IMG/VR virus record: IMGVR_UViG_2802429220_000008
Span: 1 to 18,046 of that record
Source: a virus
Lineage: Duplodnaviria > Heunggongvirae > Uroviricota > Caudoviricetes
Length of the DNA: 18,046 nt
Strand: one strand, 5' to 3'
Shown here: one piece after another, positions 1 through 14,397 of the stretch
Position numbering within the stretch: position 1 is the stretch's first letter
Layout of the letters: each line of letters opens with the position of its first letter
Translations under genes and position numbers: made by a program
Notes under the pieces: model-generated
What the model saw: the letters and a program-made list of their open reading frames with translations, nothing else
The model's database searches: none
Told to the model about the DNA's origin: nothing

Positions 1-415
1 ACAATTCCTGTGCGCTAATAACCATATCAACGGTGATGTTTTCACATGTGTCGAACTTAACCATGACAGCGTTCTGTACTTCAGGGGCCAGCTTGTCAAA
101 AGTGACGTTCATCGGATCTGATTCAGTCTCAACCGGGACAAAGGAAGCAGACTCCTCATCCCAGCGGTTTTCCTGCATATATTCAGCATCCCAGGAATCT
201 AGGGCAGGGCGGGGTATACCGGGTTTATCCTCGCAGACAAGAAATTTATAAGCGCAGTCCTGAGCAGCCGGATAATGTTCCAGGAATTGCCAGTGAAATT
301 TTGCGCGGGCGCGACGTTCATCACCGGCTTCAATGGCAGTGGCTACAGCGACGGCACCTTCTTCCTTTATTGCCTGTTCGTCCGGAATGGCGGCGCAAAT
401 AAAGACTTTACTCAT
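1..415 (-). CDS. Hypothetical acidic prophage early protein, partial (C-terminus lies beyond window start)
   Basis: Manual translation of minus strand from ATG at 415..413 (MSKVFICAAIPDEQAIKEEG...) stays open to position 1; GAGG about 11 nt upstream. Absent from the ORF track because it has no in-window stop. Confidence 0.55.
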   Translation of the reverse strand, partial: MSKVFICAAIPDEQAIKEEGAVAVATAIEAGDERRARAKFHWQFLEHYPAAQDCAYKFLVCEDKPGIPRPALDSWDAEYMQENRWDEESASFVPVETESDPMNVTFDKLAPEVQNAVMVKFDTCENITVDMVISAQEL

Positions 416-510
416 TTTGTTTTAACCTCATTACAGATTTCAGGGTGAACGAATCCCTGCCATTGCTGGCATTTTTAATCCGTTGGTATGGTGTTAATAT
501 GGCTGGAGGG

Positions 511-699
511 TTATCCAGCCGGTGTTTCGTTATTCAGGTACAGCGATACTTTTTTTAGCGGGAGGCATTCACCAGAAATTTTTTGCTCGTCTCTTGCCTG
601 GAGGCAGGATTCTTTACTTGCATAAATTCCGGTAATCACATTCTGTGATTCACCCGTTATAAGAAAAACCGTCATCATCAGTGCAAATGCTGAAGTCAT
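511..699 (-). CDS. Small protein with hydrophobic N-terminus, YdfD-like (Qin prophage lysis protein family)
   Basis: 62 aa MTSAFALMMTVFLITGE...EQKISGECLP...ETPAG; ATGA start/stop overlap with upstream dicB-like gene; resemblance to YdfD is from memory. Confidence 0.55.
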   Translation of the reverse strand: MTSAFALMMTVFLITGESQNVITGIYASKESCLQARDEQKISGECLPLKKVSLYLNNETPAG

Positions 700-884
700 T
701 GACGTTCTCCGAAAATACCAAGTTCAAGAAGAGCAATTCGGGAAAGTATGGAATTATCATTGAGCAGATAAGGCTCATATTTCCTCATATTAATGGCATC
801 TTCAGTAAACTCCCGGTTACTGAGCAGAACACCAATATCAAAACAACCTTCAGACGTATTAACGTTTGGTAATAACGTTTCCAT
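696..884 (-). CDS. dicB: DicB-like cell division inhibitor (MinC-dependent FtsZ-ring inhibitor)
   Basis: 62 aa METLLPNVNTSEGCFDIGV...FTEDAINMRK matches remembered DicB N-terminus (MKTLLPNVNTSEGCFEIGV...); GAGGA 8 nt upstream of ATG; same length as DicB. Confidence 0.75.
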   Translation of the reverse strand: METLLPNVNTSEGCFDIGVLLSNREFTEDAINMRKYEPYLLNDNSILSRIALLELGIFGERQ

Positions 885-1062
885 TATCGCGTCCTCAACA
901 ATGAATTTTGTGATGCAGTGCCTGGTGCCTCCAGGTGACGTTAACCAGTTAACAATTAACGCCGGATTAGTTGATGCTCGTTACGCCCGTAAAATACCGC
1001 CTTACTGCTTTAACTGTTCCGCGTGCGCATAGCCGCATTCACCGCATCACAAAATTCACTTT

Positions 1063-1110
1063 AAAAAGGGCGGATATCCGTTTCCGCCGAATCACCAGAA
1101 AAGTGATAAC
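1063..1110 (-). ncRNA. dicF: Candidate DicF-like sRNA ending at an intrinsic terminator about 180 nt upstream of dicB
   Basis: Minus strand reads ttttctggtgattcggcggaaacggatatccgcccttttt: 6-bp stem ggcgga/tccgcc, 8-nt loop, U-tract; the downstream stretch aaagtgaattttgtgatgcggtgaatgcgg matches my memory of the dicF-dicB spacer. 5' end not determinable from sequence. Confidence 0.35.
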
Positions 1111-1403
1111 AGAGGGCGTTGCAGCGGGGTTGTCACTTAAGCGTATGGTCAACCTGACAACCCGGTGTCCTCAGCGGGGAAGGAATAACCCCGCCATACT
1201 TACCGCCGCGCCATTTCGCGGATTGCCACAACCGGAAGCGCACGGTCGAATTAAATTTAACGACTACCTACAGAGAGACGAACTTCGCCGTGCGCTTTCG
1301 CGTTATGCCCTGACTTTTCAGGGATATATCCTTTTCAGTAAACTGTCAGTGCCGGATTCTTATCCGTGTCCGGCGCACGCACTCTACCTCACCTGTGAAT
1401 AAA

Positions 1404-1790
1404 TTAATGATTAATTGATATTTTGTTGTTTGATTCAACTTTCCCATCGGATGTGTGATGCTTTAAATCACAGGAATTAATACTGCTTGCTGTAAAATGA
1501 TTTTCAAGGGGAGCTATTCGAATCCCTTTCTTTTTCATTAACAAGCCAAATCCTTTATTAATGATGTCCATTAATTCCAGGAAGTATTTTTCATGTAAAT
1601 CCTGGTTATCAGAGAGCTGCTTCTCTTCGCACAGACCGATAAAGGCACGACGCACGTTACCGGATATAGTATCGATGGTTTCTTTTTCTACAGTACTCAG
1701 GTCAAGAGTCGCCAGTTGAGAGCGAACCACATTCGATGCCATTTCCTGGAATGGTACTGGTAAATCTTTAAATTCCATCGTCAACCTCAT
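1404..1790 (-). CDS. Hypothetical early-operon protein (possibly an intact YdfB/YdfC-like gene)
   Basis: 128-aa ORF with ATGA overlap to the upstream YdfA-like gene; position between ydfA-like and dicF-like elements as in the Qin dicB operon. Confidence 0.6.
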   Translation of the reverse strand: MRLTMEFKDLPVPFQEMASNVVRSQLATLDLSTVEKETIDTISGNVRRAFIGLCEEKQLSDNQDLHEKYFLELMDIINKGFGLLMKKKGIRIAPLENHFTASSINSCDLKHHTSDGKVESNNKISINH

Positions 1791-1942
1791 CAGTCAGTGT
1801 TTCTGGTTAACCAGCGACGCTCGCCAGCTTCAGTTTTAAACGTTTTGCTTCTGGTATACGTCATCGCGGTGAACGTACCGTCCTGGTTGGGGAACACACC
1901 ACATACCAGAGATTCGTTGTTGCCAAGATCGATAGTATCCAT
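1790..1942 (-). CDS. YdfA-like small protein (DUF1391-type)
   Basis: 50 aa MDTIDLGNNESLVCGVFPNQDGTFTAMTYTRSKTFKTEAGERRWLTRNTD; GAGG 5 nt upstream of internal ATG at 1942 (track ORF 1790..2020 starts further upstream without an RBS). Confidence 0.6.
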   Translation of the reverse strand: MDTIDLGNNESLVCGVFPNQDGTFTAMTYTRSKTFKTEAGERRWLTRNTD

Positions 1943-2118
1943 GCTGACCTCATTTCCCCTTAACGCCGGGGTAGCGGAACAAAAACCTGCTGCATAGTTA
2001 AAGTTGAACCCTGCCGTCATGTTCTTACGCCTCGGGCTGGCTACTTAACCCCTGACCACTGCCGGGTAACTCGAAGTATTTCCCTGCGTTCTGTGGGGCG
2101 TGGTGGGGTAGTGGAAAT

Positions 2119-2148
2119 AATCTACAATTAAAAACTGTTTTGTGTCAA
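2119..2148 (-). promoter_or_regulatory. Candidate leftward early promoter (PL-like) embedded in the operator palindrome
   Basis: On minus strand: -35 TTGACA (2148..2143), 18-bp spacer, -10 TAGATT (2124..2119); faces the ydfA-like/dicB operon. Confidence 0.4.
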
Positions 2149-2160
2149 CAGTTTTTAATT
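2126..2160. promoter_or_regulatory. Operator palindrome (OL-like): aattaaaaactgtt-ttgtgtc-aacagtttttaatt
   Basis: Perfect 14-bp inverted arms around a 7-bp centre; same half-site (AAAAACTGT-N9-ACAGTTTTT) as the palindrome at 3161-3195 on the other side of the repressor operon. Confidence 0.65.
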
Positions 2161-2171
2161 GTTGTATTGGG

Positions 2172-2197
2172 CAAAAAAACTCCCTCGAATGAGGGAG
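2172..2197 (-). terminator. Intrinsic terminator ending the repressor-antitoxin-toxin operon
   Basis: Stem ctccctc/gagggag with loop gaat; on the minus strand it is followed by a 7-8 nt U-tract; lies 18 bp past the toxin stop. Confidence 0.6.
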
Positions 2198-2214
2198 TGT
2201 GAAAATTGTTCAGT

Positions 2215-2502
2215 TCAGATAGGGAAGGGAAATTGTCGGCGGGCATGCACAATATTTGCAATTTCAATGCTTGAAGCTGCTACTCGGTACAAAACGATAT
2301 AATTAGGGTGAACCACAATTTCCCGCAAACCGGATACTCGATCACTTGGCGGATATAGATATGGATGCTCAGAGAGGGCTAAAACAGACGTTTCAATCCG
2401 TATTTTTAGTCTGCGTGCTGCAGGAATATTTTCCTTAGCAATATAGGCTACGATCTGACGCAAATCATCGCGAGCAGATGGTAGCCACAAAATGGGTAAC
2501 AT
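2215..2502 (-). CDS. parE: ParE/RelE-superfamily type II toxin (ParE-like)
   Basis: 95 aa with typical ParE features (LWLPSARDDL, GLREIVVHPNYIVLYRV, IANIVHARR); TAATG stop/start overlap with the upstream antitoxin gene. Confidence 0.85.
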   Translation of the reverse strand: MLPILWLPSARDDLRQIVAYIAKENIPAARRLKIRIETSVLALSEHPYLYPPSDRVSGLREIVVHPNYIVLYRVAASSIEIANIVHARRQFPFPI

Positions 2503-2693
2503 TACTCGCTCCTGTTAGTTACAGCAATTTGAGCAATAAGATTCTCCATTTCAGCCATTACCTCATCATGTGGAATTGAGGGACGAGGGTCAGCAAGGCT
2601 TGACGCCACTTTAGCGCGTAACCATTCGTTGTAACTGTTTTCTTGTTCGGTAGTTTCGAATTCTGAAACTATCGGAGAAAGGGCTGTACTCAT
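2502..2693 (-). CDS. Small antitoxin paired with ParE (PaaA-like, 63 aa)
   Basis: 63-aa acidic ORF immediately upstream of and overlapping the ParE toxin; size and context match PaaA-type antitoxins of the paaR-paaA-parE three-component modules (from memory). Confidence 0.75.
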   Translation of the reverse strand: MSTALSPIVSEFETTEQENSYNEWLRAKVASSLADPRPSIPHDEVMAEMENLIAQIAVTNRSE

Positions 2694-2720
2694 GGCATAA
2701 CTCCTCTTCTTGTACTGTGG

Positions 2721-3122
2721 TCACGCCCGGCGGCTTTTTTGTGCCGCCAACCACCGGGCAATGGTTTCTTCCATTGATTTTTTCTTGTCTTTGATTTCTT
2801 GAAGCATTTTTTCTTGGTCTTCCTCTGGAAACGCACTAAAAGCCTGGAGCAGTTCGCGTTGACGAGGACCAATTTTCATCGTGTCAGGGGTGAAAATTTG
2901 CTCCCCCTCTTCAGGAGGCAATAAAAACCAATGCAATGGATGCCCTGTAACCTCAACCAGTTTATCCAAACTTGAGGCTTTAGGTGTAGCCTTACCGCTG
3001 ACCCATTGTTGAACAGTTTGTTGTGTCACACCAATTCTACGGGCAAGCTCAGCCTGGCTCCATCCAGTTTCCTGAAGAAGCTTGCTGATTCTGTACATAG
3101 ATACTTCTAGGGCGTTCATCAT
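2721..3122 (-). CDS. Prophage repressor, HTH_XRE type without a LexA-like peptidase domain (DicA/PaaR-like)
   Basis: 133 aa; N-terminal HTH (ISKLLQETGWSQAELARRIGVTQQTVQQWVSG), C-terminal SPRQRELLQAFSAFPEEDQEKM similar in style to DicA; divergent from the cro-like gene; operators on both sides. Confidence 0.8.
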   Translation of the reverse strand: MMNALEVSMYRISKLLQETGWSQAELARRIGVTQQTVQQWVSGKATPKASSLDKLVEVTGHPLHWFLLPPEEGEQIFTPDTMKIGPRQRELLQAFSAFPEEDQEKMLQEIKDKKKSMEETIARWLAAQKSRRA

Positions 3123-3160
3123 TATTCAATTTTACAGGTAAATACTGTTAAAAGCATCAC

Positions 3161-3195
3161 AATAAAAAACTGTTGATTGTGTACAGTTTTTTATT
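3161..3195. promoter_or_regulatory. Operator palindrome (OR-like): aataaaaaactgt-tgattgtgt-acagttttttatt
   Basis: Perfect 13-bp inverted arms in the repressor/cro-like intergenic region; same half-site and spacing as 2126-2160; candidate -10 TATAGT at 3208-3213 just downstream. Confidence 0.65.
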
Positions 3196-3231
3196 GTAGG
3201 CTTTGCTTATAGTTTTTTAGAGGAGAGCAAA

Positions 3232-3504
3232 ATGCTAGATAGCACTCGCGAAAAAATTAGGCAGAAATACACTCAAGCTGAAATAGGTCGTTATATGGGG
3301 GTCGCTCAACAGACAGTTTGGCAATGGTTTAGCTTTGACGTTCCCCCAAAGCAGGTAATTCCGTTATGTCAGCTAATGAAGTGGGAAGTTACCCCGCATG
3401 AAATTCGCCCTGATATTTATCCTAACCCAACCGACGGTTTACCTGTTGGATTCAAGGTTAACACATCAAATGCACCGGAGTTGATTCATGAAAATCAAGC
3501 ATGA
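3232..3504 (+). CDS. Cro-like regulator, YdaS family
   Basis: 90 aa; HTH-like AEIGRYMGVAQQTVWQWF and the YdaS-type motif TPHEIRPDIYPNP; AGGAGAG RBS; divergent from repressor. Confidence 0.75.
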   Translation: MLDSTREKIRQKYTQAEIGRYMGVAQQTVWQWFSFDVPPKQVIPLCQLMKWEVTPHEIRPDIYPNPTDGLPVGFKVNTSNAPELIHENQA

Positions 3505-6911: not shown

Positions 6912-7496
6912 ATGATCACTTTTACAAAAGAGCAGTTAATCAGTCATGTTAGTGAAAATGTAAAGGCGATGAAATTTGCAGTAAAACAGACAGTATTCAA
7001 AAATTCTCTCGAGGCAATTGAGTTGGATTTAGCACTGGCCCTTGTTGCTCAGGCTTCGCTGGAAGCAGAGCCCGTGCTTTATATGAATCGATTTACCGGA
7101 AAGACATTCTCACTGGAAGAGCAACCCGGTGCTGATAAGGAACCGGAAATATACGTGCCGCTATATGCTGCCCCGCCAGACAGCGCCGCCATGCTTCAGG
7201 CTGGAAACTTTCGGGAAAATAAGGGTTCGTCAACCAATAATTTTCGGGAAATCTCGGAAACGTCAACCAACTATCCGGTAACTCCGGATGGTTGGATAAG
7301 CTGTAGTGAGCGAATGCCGGATGATGGTCAGCACGTAATTATTTTATGTGATGGCGCATTCGTTCTTTATGCGCAATATCGAGACGGTGAGTTTTTTGAT
7401 GTAGTCCGTAATGGTGATGAATTTTTCGAAACACAGAGCCGCAATGTAACCGACTGGATGCCGCTACCAGAACCGCCGCAGGAGGTGCGCCAATGA
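6912..7496 (+). CDS. DUF551-domain phage protein
   Basis: C-terminal DGWISCSERMPDDGQHVIILCDG...WMPLPEPP is DUF551-like; start placed at ATG 6912 after AAGGAG (track start 6852 is GTG without RBS). Confidence 0.65.
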   Translation: MITFTKEQLISHVSENVKAMKFAVKQTVFKNSLEAIELDLALALVAQASLEAEPVLYMNRFTGKTFSLEEQPGADKEPEIYVPLYAAPPDSAAMLQAGNFRENKGSSTNNFREISETSTNYPVTPDGWISCSERMPDDGQHVIILCDGAFVLYAQYRDGEFFDVVRNGDEFFETQSRNVTDWMPLPEPPQEVRQ

Positions 7497-7786: not shown

Positions 7787-7849
7787 TGCTGCGGGTGCTT
7801 GAGGCTGTCTGCCTCGGGCATGCCACCGTAAGGCAGACAGAGAAAAGCC

Positions 7850-7915
7850 CCAGTTAACATTACGCGTCCTGCAAGACGCCTAACATTAATCTGAGGCCAA
7901 TTTCATGCTAGACAT
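7850..7915 (-). ncRNA. Predicted Sok-like antisense RNA region (boundaries uncertain)
   Basis: Inferred from hok-family organisation; candidate minus-strand promoter -35 TTGCCT (7948..7943), 17-bp spacer, -10 TAACCT (7925..7920) would give an RNA antisense to the mok start; no clean terminator found. Confidence 0.25.
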
Positions 7916-8117
7916 ATGTAGGTTAGCCTCTTACGCGCCGAAAGGCAAGGAGAAGCAGGCTATGAAGCAGCAAAAGGCGATGTTAATCGCCCTGATCGTC
8001 ATCTGTATCACCGTCATAGTGACGGCACTGGTAACGAGGAAAGACCTCTGCGAGGTACGAATCCGAACCGGCCAGACGGAGGTCGCTGTCTTCACAGCTT
8101 ACGAACCTGAGGAGTAA
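7905..8117 (+). CDS. Mok-like reading frame (in-frame leader encompassing hok)
   Basis: 70-aa ORF MLDICRLASYAPKGKEKQAMKQQK... with GAGG 8 nt upstream; same frame as hok, resembling the arrangement remembered for MokC/HokC. Confidence 0.5.
   Translation: MLDICRLASYAPKGKEKQAMKQQKAMLIALIVICITVIVTALVTRKDLCEVRIRTGQTEVAVFTAYEPEE
7962..8117 (+). CDS. hok: Hok/Gef-family type I toxin (HokD/RelF-like, 51 aa)
   Basis: MKQQKAMLIALIVICITVIVTALVTRKDLCEVRIRTGQTEVAVFTAYEPEE: single TM helix plus conserved TRKDLCE...REVA.F.AYE motif. Confidence 0.9.
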   Translation: MKQQKAMLIALIVICITVIVTALVTRKDLCEVRIRTGQTEVAVFTAYEPEE

Positions 8118-9627: not shown

Positions 9628-9990
9628 ATGTGTATAGAGTTTGTTTTGCCTTACCCGCCGACGGTGAATACTTACTGGCGACGTCGTGGCAGCACATATT
9701 TTGTATCAAAAGCCGGGGAGCGTTATCGCCGGGCAGTGGCGTTTATTGTTCGCCAGCAGCAGTTGAAATTAAGCCTGTCCGGACGGCTGGCAATAAAAAT
9801 TATTGCAGAGCCACCGGATAAGCGCCGCCGTGACCTGGACAATATTCTGAAAGCACCGCTGGATGCGCTGACGCACGCGGGGTTGTTAATGGACGATGAA
9901 CAGTTTGATGAAATCAATATTGTACGTGGTCAGCCAGTATCTGGTGGACGGCTGGAAATAAGAATTACAGAGGTGGGTGTGCATGAATAA
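9628..9990 (+). CDS. rusA: RusA Holliday junction resolvase
   Basis: 120 aa from ATG 9628: LPYPPTVNTYW...RRRDLDNILKAPLDALTHAGLLMDDEQ...GGRLEIRITE, colinear with E. coli RusA. Confidence 0.9.
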   Translation: MCIEFVLPYPPTVNTYWRRRGSTYFVSKAGERYRRAVAFIVRQQQLKLSLSGRLAIKIIAEPPDKRRRDLDNILKAPLDALTHAGLLMDDEQFDEINIVRGQPVSGGRLEIRITEVGVHE

Positions 9991-10672
9991 CCAGTATTTA
10001 CAGTTTGTTCGTGAGCAACTCATGATTGCCACTGCAGATCTCAGTGGGTCGACAAAAGGCCAGCTGGAAGCCTGGCAGGAAAATGCCCTGTTCGATACAG
10101 GGCGTTACAGACGCAAAAAAATTCGTTACCGCGATGAGGTAACTGGAAAAATGATCACGCGGGATAATCCCCCGATCCAGGGTAAACAATCACTGGCGAA
10201 AGGCTCATCAATTGCGCTGGTCAGTCCTGTTGAGTTTGCAACATCATCGTGGCGGCGTGCCCTTCTGGAACTGGAAGAACATCAGAAGGCGTGGTTGTTG
10301 TGGTGTTATGGCGGAAACATTTGCTGGGAGCATCAGATCGCGATAACGCAGTGGGTGTGGAGTGAATTTAAAACTCAGTCCGGCTCCAGAAAAATTGCAG
10401 TGAAAACGCTGGAGCGTGTGAAGAAGTTGATCTGGCTGGCGGCACAGGATGTCAGAGGATGGGTTACCGGGTGTGAGGTCTACCAGAGACAGGAGCTTGC
10501 CAGACTGTGTGGAGTTAAGCCTGATAACTGGAGCCATAATTATGCGAACTACTGGCGTGAGATGTGCGATATTTTTAAGCGCCTCGATAGAGAATCCTTG
10601 ATTTGCTCCGTGAAAATAAGAGCGCAACAAAAAGCGACCTTTTCACGACGAGATATTGCAAAAGTCAATTAA
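9983..10672 (+). CDS. Late-gene antiterminator Q-like protein (Qin QuuQ / phage 82-type), assigned mainly by position
   Basis: 229 aa directly after rusA and before a short terminated region; start ATG 9983 overlaps the rusA stop with GAGG upstream; no sequence-level confirmation. Confidence 0.5.
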   Translation: MNNQYLQFVREQLMIATADLSGSTKGQLEAWQENALFDTGRYRRKKIRYRDEVTGKMITRDNPPIQGKQSLAKGSSIALVSPVEFATSSWRRALLELEEHQKAWLLWCYGGNICWEHQIAITQWVWSEFKTQSGSRKIAVKTLERVKKLIWLAAQDVRGWVTGCEVYQRQELARLCGVKPDNWSHNYANYWREMCDIFKRLDRESLICSVKIRAQQKATFSRRDIAKVN

Positions 10673-11232: not shown

Positions 11233-12291
11233 ATGCTTAATACTGTAAAAATATCCAGTTGTGAGTTAATCAACGCCGACTGCCTGGAATTTATCCGGTC
11301 GTTACCCGAAAATTCTGTTGACCTGATAGTCACGGACCCGCCGTACTTTAAAGTGAAGCCTGAGGGCTGGGATAACCAGTGGAAGGGCGACGATGATTAC
11401 CTGAAGTGGCTGGACCAGTGTCTTGCGCAGTTCTGGCGGGTGCTGAAACCTGCCGGAAGTCTTTACCTGTTCTGTGGCCATCGCCTGGCATCTGATATCG
11501 AAATCATGATGCGTGAACGCTTCAGTGTGCTGAACCATATTATCTGGGCGAAGCCGTCCGGACGCTGGAACGGGTGCAACAAGGAAAGCCTGCGGGCGTA
11601 TTTTCCGGCAACAGAGCGCATTCTGTTCGCGGAACATTATCAGGGGCCGTATCGTCCGAAAGATGCCGGGTATGAGGCGAAGGGCAGGGCACTGAAACAG
11701 CATGTGATGGCCCCGCTGATTGCTTACTTTCGTGATGCGCGCGCTACCCTGGGGATAACGGCAAAACAGATTGTGGATGCCACAGGAAAGAAAAACATGG
11801 TGTCGCACTGGTTCAGTGCCAGCCAGTGGCAGTTACCGAACGAGGATGATTACAGAAAACTTCAGGTGCTGTTTGCCCGGGTGGCAGAAGAGAAACATCA
11901 GCGGGGTGAACTGGAAAAGCCACATCACCAACTGGTCAGCACATACAGTGAGCTGAACCGGCAGTATGCCAGCCTGCTGGAAGAGTACAAATCACTGCGG
12001 CGTTATTTTTCCGTATCGGCAGCCGTTCCTTATACGGATGTCTGGACGCACAAGCCTGTGCAGTATTATCCGGGCAAACATCCCTGTGAAAAACCGGCAG
12101 ATATGTTGCGGCAAATGATTACCGCCAGCAGTCGTCCGGGTGACCTGGTTGCAGATTTCTTCATGGGGTCCGGTTCGACAGTCAAAGCAGCGATGGCGCT
12201 GGGGCGTCGTGCAATTGGTGTCGAGCTGGAGGCTGAACGTTTTGAGCAGACCGCAAGGGATGTACAGAATTTAATCAGAAAGAGAGAGTGA
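11233..12291 (+). CDS. Orphan DNA methyltransferase (N6-adenine or N4-cytosine, DPPY motif)
   Basis: 352 aa; DLIVTDPPYF near the N-terminus and FFMGSGST near the C-terminus; no adjacent restriction endonuclease ORF. Confidence 0.8.
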   Translation: MLNTVKISSCELINADCLEFIRSLPENSVDLIVTDPPYFKVKPEGWDNQWKGDDDYLKWLDQCLAQFWRVLKPAGSLYLFCGHRLASDIEIMMRERFSVLNHIIWAKPSGRWNGCNKESLRAYFPATERILFAEHYQGPYRPKDAGYEAKGRALKQHVMAPLIAYFRDARATLGITAKQIVDATGKKNMVSHWFSASQWQLPNEDDYRKLQVLFARVAEEKHQRGELEKPHHQLVSTYSELNRQYASLLEEYKSLRRYFSVSAAVPYTDVWTHKPVQYYPGKHPCEKPADMLRQMITASSRPGDLVADFFMGSGSTVKAAMALGRRAIGVELEAERFEQTARDVQNLIRKRE

Positions 12292-12331
12292 TATTGCTGA
12301 ATTTATTCTGTAACGTTATCATTATGTTATC

Positions 12332-12407
12332 GGCCCTTTAGCTCAGTGGTGAGAGCGAGCGACTCATAATCGCCAGGTCGCTGGTTCAAATCCAGCAAGG
12401 GCCACCA
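12332..12407 (+). tRNA. tRNA with CAU anticodon (Met, or Ile2 if lysidine-modified)
   Basis: Manual fold: acceptor ggccctt/aagggcc, D-arm gctc..gagc, anticodon loop cuCAUaa, T-arm gctgg-ttcaaat-ccagc, 3' ACCA. Confidence 0.85.
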
Positions 12408-12408
12408 A

Positions 12409-12474
12409 CCGCCACTAGCTCATCAGGAAAGAACGTCACCCTGTGCGAGATTCGGAGTCCCCGGTGGCGGTCCA
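12409..12474 (+). other. tRNA-like remnant (perfect acceptor stem and CCA but too short, no canonical T-arm)
   Basis: ccgccac ... gtggcgg followed by tcca, 66 nt overall, sitting between two intact tRNAs where Stx-type phages carry three tRNAs. Confidence 0.35.
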
Positions 12475-12487
12475 TTATCAGCATTAT

Positions 12488-12564
12488 GCGTTGTTAGCTC
12501 AGCCGGACAGAGCAATTGCCTTCTAAGCAATCGGTCACTGGTTCGAATCCAGTACAACGCGCCA
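12488..12564 (+). tRNA. tRNA-Arg (anticodon UCU)
   Basis: Manual fold: acceptor gcgttgt/acaacgc, D-arm gctc..gagc, anticodon stem attgc/gcaat with loop cuUCUaa, T-arm cactg-gttcgaat-ccagt, GCCA end. Confidence 0.85.
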
Positions 12565-12575
12565 TATTTATTTAC

Positions 12576-12617
12576 CTGGCTCGCTTTTGCGGGCCTTTTT
12601 TGTATCTGCGTTACACC
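12576..12617 (+). repeat. Terminator-like element, copy A (ggctcgc-tttt-gcgggcc + ttttttgtatctgcg)
   Basis: Imperfect hairpin plus T-tract directly downstream of tRNA-Arg; about 80 percent identical to 13173-13213. Confidence 0.6.
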
Positions 12618-12653
12618 ATTAACTAATAAATCGAGTGCTTATCAGGAGGCTAT

Positions 12654-13329: not shown

Positions 13330-13761
13330 ATGTTTGGTATTTTCAAAAAGAAAACCCGCAGAGCAGCAGCGGAAATTAAAAAGTTTGAGAAACGTGATCT
13401 GGCACAGGCGGTTATTAATGCTGCCTATCTGGTGGCCTATGCAGATGGTGAATGTGAGGCTTCAGAGAAAGCGAAGATCGAGCAGGTCTTGCGTAACCAG
13501 CCAGCGTTGTCCGCGTTTACGTCAGAAATTAATGCTATCAGTGCCACGATCACAGGTCAGCTTGACACCAACTTTAAAATTGGTCGTCGAGCGGCGTTGC
13601 GTGAAATTGAAGATGTGAAACACGATACGCGTGAAGCGGAAGATGTGCTGGATGTGGCGGTGGCCATTGCTGAAGCAGATGGTGAAATTGAGCCGGAAGA
13701 GCGTAAGGTTCTGGAAGAGATCGCCGGTGTTCTTGGCCTGCGACTGGAGAACCACCTGTGA
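13330..13761 (+). CDS. TerB-like domain protein
   Basis: 143 aa from ATG 13330 (AGGA 8 nt upstream); two TerB-like repeats AYADGECEASEKAKIEQVL and AEADGEIEPEERKVLEEIAGVLGL. Confidence 0.6.
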   Translation: MFGIFKKKTRRAAAEIKKFEKRDLAQAVINAAYLVAYADGECEASEKAKIEQVLRNQPALSAFTSEINAISATITGQLDTNFKIGRRAALREIEDVKHDTREAEDVLDVAVAIAEADGEIEPEERKVLEEIAGVLGLRLENHL

Positions 13762-13922: not shown

Positions 13923-14156
13923 CCGGGTATCAGTCATGCCCTGAAAATTTTAAATGTCTCACAATTCAGACGGTTGACAGTTGTCTGGTTTGCGGGGAGT
14001 TTGTTAAAAGAAACTGGCATGGTGAATCCCCCTGAGCGGAGGGGCATATCAGCGCAGGTGTTTCTACTCTATCCTTTCTGTGCGGGTTCAGGTGCTGATA
14101 CTGAACTCACCGGGAGGCACCCGGCACCATGCAAGAAAAAGAATGTGCATGCAAAC

Positions 14157-14184
14157 ATGCCCCTCTCCGGAGGGGCATTTTTAT
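14157..14184 (+). terminator. Intrinsic terminator
   Basis: Perfect 9-bp stem atgcccctc/gaggggcat, loop tccg, then ttttat. Confidence 0.6.
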
Positions 14185-14397
14185 GGGTAAAAAATGCCCG
14201 AATGGGTTCGGGCAATAGCATGAGATACTGATATTGTTGTGTTGTTATCGTGTGGATTTTAACCAGGGTTTATCAGGCTGCGCAACTGCGTGGCCTTTTT
14301 TCATTTCTTGGGCTGTAGTCCCCGTGTGTCATTCAGGCTTCCGGACTACAGCCCACTCCATATCTGATTTAATACACTATCCCGGCCGGGAGGAATA

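Follow-up and report, generated by a model that had tools for sequence, protein, structure and literature searches.

Three tRNA genes, ileZ, argN and argO, form an operon upstream of stx2 in the 933W-type Stx2 phages. These names are taken from record annotations; the 933W genome paper of Plunkett et al. from 1999 is reportedly to be credited with them. The middle gene, argN, is a full-length and functional-looking tRNA with a T7-A66 pair and a CCAGC/GCTGG anticodon stem. A second type of gene found in the same slot is the tRNA-Lys(UUU)-type gene, which occurs in the arrangements ileZ-Lys-argO and ileZ-Lys-Thr-Gly. PGAP annotates one copy as tRNA-Lys in an ileZ-Lys-argO arrangement of E. coli RM14723 (locus L125, 1505-1581), and the same allele is present at 7270-7346 of locus L008. 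In tRNA pseudogenes, as defined by the tRNAscan-SE rules, clear tRNA homology goes together with disabling lesions, and the covariance-model score is low or missing.

The DNA analysed here, referred to as the window, is a whole stretch of 18,046 nucleotides from a caudoviral IMG/VR record (IMGVR_UViG_2802429220_000008). It contains a 66-nt element between an ileZ-type and an argO-type tRNA (Table 1). The original prediction had described a 66-nt element with a perfect 7-bp acceptor stem and a 3´ CCA between the CAU and UCU tRNAs, and both the coordinates and the description are exact, with the pairing read directly and the flanks taken from ARAGORN. The element has the operon position and the flanking ileZ and argO genes of argN but differs from it in the features listed above. 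It shares the slot, the acceptor stem, the D loop, the variable region, the discriminator and the CCA with the Lys(UUU)-type gene, from which it is distinguished by 12 missing nucleotides, by a T loop with one additional G and by base changes at positions 12433, 12439 and 12450. It resembles tRNA pseudogenes in the three properties named above; compared with tRNA pseudogenes in general, it escaped detection under relaxed settings too (ARAGORN -ps; Rfam tRNA with E up to 10). Full-text searches of the literature on ileZ/argN/argO, the tRNA of Stx2c phage 2851, the 933W tRNA genes and Stx phage genomics yielded no description of this element. Its homology, its lesions, the failure of tRNA detectors on it and the wide distribution of one nearly invariant allele were observed directly, and it is very probably a non-functional pseudogene of the middle gene of an ileZ-X-argO operon, acting only as a spacer.

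Table 1. Coordinates of the 66-nt element, its parts and its surroundings in the window.
Feature	Position	Strand	Remarks
sok (Rfam), full-length match	7793-7967	+	114.3 bits; 18-nt insertion in one hairpin loop
Q antiterminator	9977-10672		PF06323
DNA methylase	11233-12291		PF01555
Putative tRNA-operon promoter region	12294-12322	+	TTGCTG, 17-nt spacer, TATCAT; aligns with 'pT putative tRNA promoter' of phage 06-3462 (L003 306-334)
ileZ-type tRNA, anticodon CAT, intact, first operon gene	12332-12407	+	ARAGORN; Rfam tRNA 72.5 bits; PGAP in 100%-identical genomes
Spacer (A), ileZ CCA to element	12408	+	1 nt
66-nt element, whole	12409-12474	+	CCGCCACTAGCTCATCAGGAAAGAACGTCACCCTGTGCGAGATTCGGAGTCCCCGGTGGCGGTCCA
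Acceptor stem, 5´ strand, CCGCCAC	12409-12415	+	Pairs 7/7 with 12464-12470
D arm, GCTC / ATCAGGAAA / GAAC	12418-12434	+	Alignment to L008, L125
Anticodon-stem remnant, 5´ strand TCACC and first loop base	12436-12441	+	
Variable-region remnant, TGTG	12442-12445	+	Alignment
T arm, degraded, CGAGA / TTCGGAGT / CCCCG	12446-12463	+	Alignment to L008, L125
Acceptor stem, 3´ strand GTGGCGG (12464-12470), discriminator T (12471), encoded CCA (12472-12474)	12464-12474	+	
Spacer TTATCAGCATTAT, element to argO	12475-12487	+	13 nt; three spacer haplotypes among loci with the element
argO-type tRNA-Arg, anticodon TCT, intact, last operon gene	12488-12564	+	ARAGORN; Rfam tRNA 70.1 bits
Intrinsic-terminator-like hairpin GGCTCGC TTTT GCGGGCC, then TTTTTT, operon end	12578-12601	+	Corresponds to terminator annotation of phage 06-3462 (L003 607-630)
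Small ORF, 74 aa	12654-12878	+	No Pfam match
Small ORF, 69 aa	12931-13140	+	No Pfam match
TerB-family ORF	13330-13761	+	PF05099, E = 1.4e-16
STnc100 sRNA match	13988-14188	+	151.6 bits
AgvB (anti-GcvB sRNA) match	14189-14250	-	96.5 bits; identical to model consensus; abuts STnc100 on opposite strand
NanS-p-like esterase	14398-16248		

The Q antiterminator, the DNA methylase and the NanS-p-like esterase confirm that the surroundings are the late region of a lambdoid prophage. The tRNA operon follows the Q antiterminator and DNA methylase genes and precedes the site where Stx phages carry stx (stxAB); the prophage in the window has no stx there and bears the small ORFs and the TerB-family ORF instead. 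Two chromosomes of bovine E. coli, OkiPb01678 and OkiPb01712, match 12280-12640 with 100% identity, and in them PGAP annotates a tRNA-Ile and a tRNA-Arg only. tRNA-Ile is the PGAP name of the ileZ-type tRNA(CAT), which corresponds to tRNA-Ile2 after lysidine modification. The alignment of 12294-12322 to the annotation of phage 06-3462 weakly suggests a promoter; this region was not called in a consensus promoter scan, and its -35 hexamer matches the consensus at only 3/6 positions. The sok family, listed first in the table, is the RNA that serves as antitoxin in type I toxin-antitoxin systems of the hok/sok kind.

Three other identities for the element were rejected. A coding function was discarded on the observation that no ORF of at least 50 aa lies between 12292 and 12653, and a tmRNA on the observation that ARAGORN found none in the window. 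Origin by duplication of part of a tRNA at a prophage attachment site was rejected on two grounds: the element has both gene ends and an internal deletion, and it sits within a late-region tRNA operon, away from any prophage boundary.

General tRNA detectors recognize the flanking genes and pass over the element. In the whole window, ARAGORN called two tRNAs, the tRNA(CAT) and the tRNA-Arg(TCT), and the Rfam tRNA model scored the same two genes. At its default, -ps and mitochondrial settings, ARAGORN made no call on the element; the -ps80 and -ps60 settings gave only spurious overlapping calls that were out of register with it. The Rfam tRNA model (RF00005), run on 12395-12490 at E up to 10, did not detect it. 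For comparison, the Lys-type copy of RM14723 scores 37 bits on the Rfam tRNA model, and the element gives no score. Degradation has placed the element beyond the reach of general-purpose detectors, and current genome annotation therefore leaves it unflagged.

Descent from a tRNA was established by alignment. A megablast of 12280-12640 against phage records matched 289 records, mostly Stx2-converting phages. The corresponding part of the Stx2a phages bears the annotations ileZ, argN and argO, and ARAGORN calls three tRNAs there, with tRNA-Arg(TCG) in the middle; the earlier statement that related phages carry three tRNAs at this locus is borne out by these annotations at aligned positions. The Stx2c phages carry the same short allele as the window. 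The element is collinear with argN, except that 12 nt are missing from its anticodon region and its T loop is longer by one base, and it is homologous to the middle tRNA of the Stx-type cluster: 54/65 aligned bases are identical to argN (tRNA-Arg UCG) of Stx2a_F723. Identity to the Lys-type allele (L008) reaches 62/65 aligned bases (95%), so that a sequence without similarity to any tRNA is out of the question: a full-length tRNA of the same slot is its near match. Further features in common with the Lys-type allele are a spacer of 1 nt behind ileZ, C7 paired with G66, the stretch GTGTGCGAG and the D loop ATCAGGAAA. The direct parent is this tRNA-Lys(UUU)-type allele, a paralogue of argN in that slot, and the argN of Stx phages is a cousin. 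The Lys(UUU)-type lineage typically has a spacer of 1 nt after ileZ; it measures 7-9 nt in the argN lineage (TCACATA or TATCACATA).

The Lys(TTT)-type allele (L008 7270-7346, L125 1505-1581) is common in E. coli prophages and has peculiarities of its own, namely an A.C mismatch in the T stem and an anticodon loop CCTTTAA. This loop has C at position 33, where a U is found in nearly all tRNAs. A Lys(TTT)-type allele with the canonical loop CTTTTAT is found at L009 4006-4082. Across the slot, the anticodon has switched on one conserved acceptor stem, with UCG, UUU and, in L031, UCU.

The occupancy of the slot was surveyed in IMG/VR with the 3´ end of ileZ as anchor, which gave 118 loci, or 119 with the window. 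ileZ was followed by Arg(TCG) and Arg(TCT) in 61 loci. The 77-nt Lys(TTT) gene called by ARAGORN, followed by Thr and Gly tRNAs, was present in 15 loci, and one more locus had only that tRNA called. A 76-nt Lys-type version followed by argO was seen in 2 loci. ileZ and argO without a callable middle tRNA were found in 29/119 loci. A scan for the ileZ 3´ end in one genome per species returned only 8 loci, essentially from Escherichia, Shigella and a few metagenome bins, with no deeper reach.

A covariance model of the family, R1, was built from 30 distinct full-length alleles of the middle slot. They conform to the cloverleaf: 97.3% of their cells are paired, compared with only 29-53% in slid-partner controls, and four pairs change on both sides among them (alignment columns 4:70, 7:67, 28:44 and 31:41). 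The family of the parent is a genuine tRNA. R1 scores 54.4 bits (E = 7.6e-13) for the element, in a match at exactly 12409-12474 that takes in model positions 1-77, and gives 98.8 bits for the intact Lys-type allele of L008 and 107.2 bits for the argN of F723. The element is therefore a member of the middle-slot family by descent only, that is, a pseudogene; the full-length 77-nt cloverleaf is absent from it.

The same scores bear on the notion that the element is a chance inverted repeat followed by CCA and unrelated to tRNA. Perfect 7-bp stems that close 40-74 nt and are followed by NCCA occur at 5 sites in the window, compared with a mean of 1.4 and a maximum of 5 in first-order Markov simulations of the window, so such a combination is not rare on its own and the chance test does not discriminate. 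It is superseded by homology: with 95% identity to a full-length tRNA of the same slot and an R1 match of 54.4 bits at the exact coordinates, the element is real, and the probability of a chance origin is practically nil. We regard this explanation as refuted.

The lesions were located arm by arm. The acceptor stem is complete, and its C 12415-G 12464 pair is the C7-G66 state of the Lys-type lineage, which is T7-A66 in argN. In the D arm, a G-to-A change at 12433 breaks the second stem pair (C.A) and leaves 3/4 pairs around a 9-nt loop; the same change occurs in one full-length allele, L093. A 12-nt deletion has its junction at 12441/12442; lost with it are the anticodon and what else remained of its loop, the anticodon stem's entire 3´ strand and one base of the variable region. 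The gap can be read either as a 12-nt deletion with an A-to-C substitution at 12439 or as separate 11-nt and 1-nt deletions. The T loop has 8 nt, with one extra G (12454 or 12455) relative to the Lys-type allele, the canonical loop being of 7 nt and the TTCRANY type, and a G-to-A change at 12450 creates a second A.C mismatch in the T stem, of which 3/5 pairs are left. In total, 13/21 pairs are kept (acceptor 7/7, D 3/4, anticodon 0/5, T 3/5). Among the canonical features, the element has the acceptor stem with its discriminator and CCA but neither an anticodon stem-loop nor an intact T arm. When the 83-nt stretch 12405-12487 was used as a query against complete E. coli genomes, only query positions 1-38 (or 1-34) aligned in the full-length Lys-type genomes among the matches listed; these partial alignments suggest that the T-arm lesions may be confined to the deletion allele.

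The element can decode no codon, because the anticodon arm is absent. This point also decides the case of a functional unconventional (armless) tRNA. The intact acceptor stem, discriminator and CCA are what such a molecule would retain, but the anticodon and the 3´ stem strand have been deleted, and neither the mitochondrial nor the low-threshold modes of ARAGORN give a call. The armless tRNAs known to us that do without a D or a T arm always have an anticodon arm. A functional armless tRNA is scarcely conceivable here and effectively refuted. What had been proposed as a possible decayed third tRNA is indeed syntenic with and homologous to a middle tRNA, with its anticodon deleted and its stems broken.

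A non-functional pseudogene would have arisen as follows. The ancestor was probably a full-length 77-nt gene of the tRNA-Lys(UUU) type, a paralogue of the argN of Stx phages. The 12-nt internal deletion would have inactivated this gene, and the extra G in the T loop and the substitutions in the D and T stems would have added to the damage. From its position within the operon, between the putative promoter and the terminator, the element is probably co-transcribed with ileZ and argO. It may then serve as an internal transcribed spacer that is cut out and degraded as the flanking tRNAs mature. The intact acceptor stem and CCA would reflect a recent origin and not selection. Two observations speak against a mere pseudogene. 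The acceptor stem, the discriminator and the CCA are intact in both of the common anticodon-less alleles, the 66-nt element and an 80-nt allele described below, which could hint at selection for tRNA ends. Moreover, the element occurs without substitutions in at least three promoter-region and at least four downstream contexts, in a sample that was ascertained by exact match.

The preserved ends could alternatively mean that the element is kept as processing punctuation, in which the acceptor helix and NCCA, stacked on a residual T hairpin, would offer RNase P a site for defining the ileZ 3´ end and would aid maturation of the flanking tRNAs. Bacterial RNase P is said to cleave minihelices made of acceptor stem and T arm (work ascribed to McClain, Guerrier-Takada and Altman in 1987). 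The acceptor stem is 7/7 paired and followed by an encoded UCCA, the predicted fold sets a 3-bp hairpin (CGG/CCG) beside the 3´ acceptor strand, and only 1 nt separates the CCA of ileZ from the element. In addition, the independent 80-nt allele (1782/5426 genomes) keeps its acceptor stem and CCA without a normal anticodon arm. However, the T arm, which is part of the minihelix determinant, is damaged: 2 of its 5 pairs are mismatched and the loop has 8 nt. E. coli RNase E also separates polycistronic tRNAs, so that an RNase P site would be dispensable. The sole polymorphism of the element and one polymorphism of the 80-nt allele both break acceptor pairs, as expected under neutral drift, and no compensatory change was found among the copies of the element. 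We consider such punctuation unlikely and retain the non-functional pseudogene as the preferred reading.

An excised regulatory RNA was also weighed. In this role the element would titrate a tRNA-binding protein or a small RNA of the host, as a decoy or sponge. In E. coli, RyhB and RybB are reportedly sponged by transcribed spacers of tRNA operons, both internal and 3´ external ones, a finding attributed to Lalaouna et al. in 2015. The element allele is widespread, and AgvB (-) and STnc100 (+) are encoded in the same prophage region (Table 1), so that RNA regulators borne by phages are indeed present nearby. AgvB is the phage-encoded anti-sRNA described in enterohaemorrhagic E. coli. Against a sponge stand the predicted fold and the lack of a family. 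The minimum free energy of the element is -20.5 kcal/mol (z = -0.89), and 35/200 shuffles fold as well or better; the predicted fold is no stabler than shuffled sequence and gives no sign of a special structure. Rfam was searched with the window at the gathering threshold and, up to E = 10, with 12395-12490; over the element, only a chance-level minus-strand lncRNA match resulted. The allele is nearly invariant and hence offers no conservation signal, and its single-stranded stretches are indistinguishable from those of the intact parent tRNA. A regulatory role is very unlikely on these grounds. The original prediction had further offered a tRNA-derived structured RNA, which finds no support: the z value is the one just given, the only polymorphism breaks an acceptor pair, and the allele offers no covariation to count.

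The middle slot decays independently elsewhere, by an 80-nt allele with a replaced anticodon arm, by an argN/argO fusion, by a D-arm deletion and by truncation. The 80-nt anticodon-less allele (L014 2726-2805; also L024, L030, L033, L131 and many more) has the sequence CCGCCATTAGCTTATCAGGAAGAGCAGACGACACGATAACAGGGTTGTTGGTGCGGGGGCGGGTCCCCGATGGCGGTCCA. Like the 66-nt element, it lies between ileZ and argO, keeps a 7-bp acceptor stem and CCA, and is uncalled by ARAGORN, Rfam and PGAP; the Rfam tRNA model did not detect it at E up to 1. Unlike the element, it has an independent origin in the argN lineage (T7-A66), and its anticodon arm has been replaced rather than deleted, by an unrelated 28-nt stretch predicted to fold as a 7-bp hairpin with a triloop. 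Its predicted fold comprises the acceptor stem, the D arm, the replacement hairpin and a T stem with a 6-nt loop that lacks TTC. R1 gives it 52.4 bits (L014). It is present, without annotation, in 1782/5426 complete E. coli genomes, which makes it 4.5 times commoner than the 66-nt element (392). Its copies range from 80 to 100% in identity, and one of its few polymorphisms breaks the acceptor stem; this range of identity would permit a covariation test. A broader proposal, that the 66-nt and 80-nt anticodon-less alleles are both kept for their acceptor helix and CCA, either as an RNase P signal for the ileZ 3´ end or as a tRNA mimic that titrates a host or defence factor, appears distinctly improbable.

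Further variants of the slot were observed. L050 and L086 carry an 81-nt chimera of the 80-nt allele with a normal T arm. In L022, L049 and L094 from IMG/VR, the 5´ half of argN continues into the 3´ half of argO, the fusion point being the anticodon-loop sequence CCTTCTAAGC common to both genes, which leaves one chimeric and uncallable tRNA-like gene and represents another route of middle-tRNA loss. In L128 (Escherichia albertii NBRC 107761), argO is truncated just past the anticodon (…CCTTCTAAGCAGCTGTGG…), so that the tRNA operon is broken at this point by a rearrangement or an insertion.

The deletion allele was found in 392/5426 complete E. coli genomes, counted with the 83-nt query (12405-12487) at a query cover of at least 80%. 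Many of these belong to O157:H7 and other Shiga-toxin-producing serotypes, and the carriers include Stx2c phages. In none of the 392 genomes is a feature annotated over the element. Among the matches listed, the classes with identity below 100% are due to differences in the spacer that follows it. An IMG/VR scan for the 16-mer of the deletion junction returned 76 stretches, of which about 32 are true copies and the rest unrelated matches. The exact junction matches in IMG/VR, together with three GenBank/RefSeq loci and the window, make up 37 copies. Of these, 35 are identical, and two (L015 and L191) carry a G-to-A change at the equivalent of 12464, which gives a C7.A66 mismatch. Because the sample was ascertained by exact junction match, the near-invariance of the 37 copies is partly built in and is no proof of conservation. 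Covariation could not be counted in the element, the IMG/VR copies being identical save for the one pair-breaking variant.

The element was found with 3 promoter-region haplotypes, and its downstream contexts number at least 4, the 80 nt that follow argO having 5 haplotypes. Seen directly downstream of it were stx2c in L002, the small-ORF cargo of the window and, in L123 and L124, a NanS-p-like gene at a distance of about 520 nt. This variety of contexts indicates that the element has spread by recombination among prophages, and the population data fit a single recent origin of the deletion allele.

The element is best classed as an unannotated tRNA pseudogene, a case of ordinary gene decay and no new kind of RNA, and it matters little for biology at large. 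Its interest lies with the operon. Lambdoid prophages of the Stx type and their relatives can do without the middle gene of ileZ-X-argO, which has decayed time and again, with ileZ (AUA) and argO (AGA/AGG) being kept. The statement that Stx phages carry three tRNAs consequently needs qualifying: many have two working ones only. Both the 66-nt element (392/5426) and the 80-nt allele (1782/5426) could be flagged as tRNA pseudogenes in genome annotation, and the deletion junction is a handy lineage marker for prophage late regions, including those of Stx2c phages.

The genes that flank the element vary as well. ileZ has four haplotypes in the loci that carry it, one of them with a G-to-A change in the 3´ acceptor strand. 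Downstream of the element, 6/37 copies, all from IMG/VR, are followed by an argO variant that differs from the common argO at six positions. This variant shows a two-sided exchange in the T stem (CACTGG...CCAGT to CAGTGG...CCACT), and its T loop is changed from TTCGAAT to TTAGACT.
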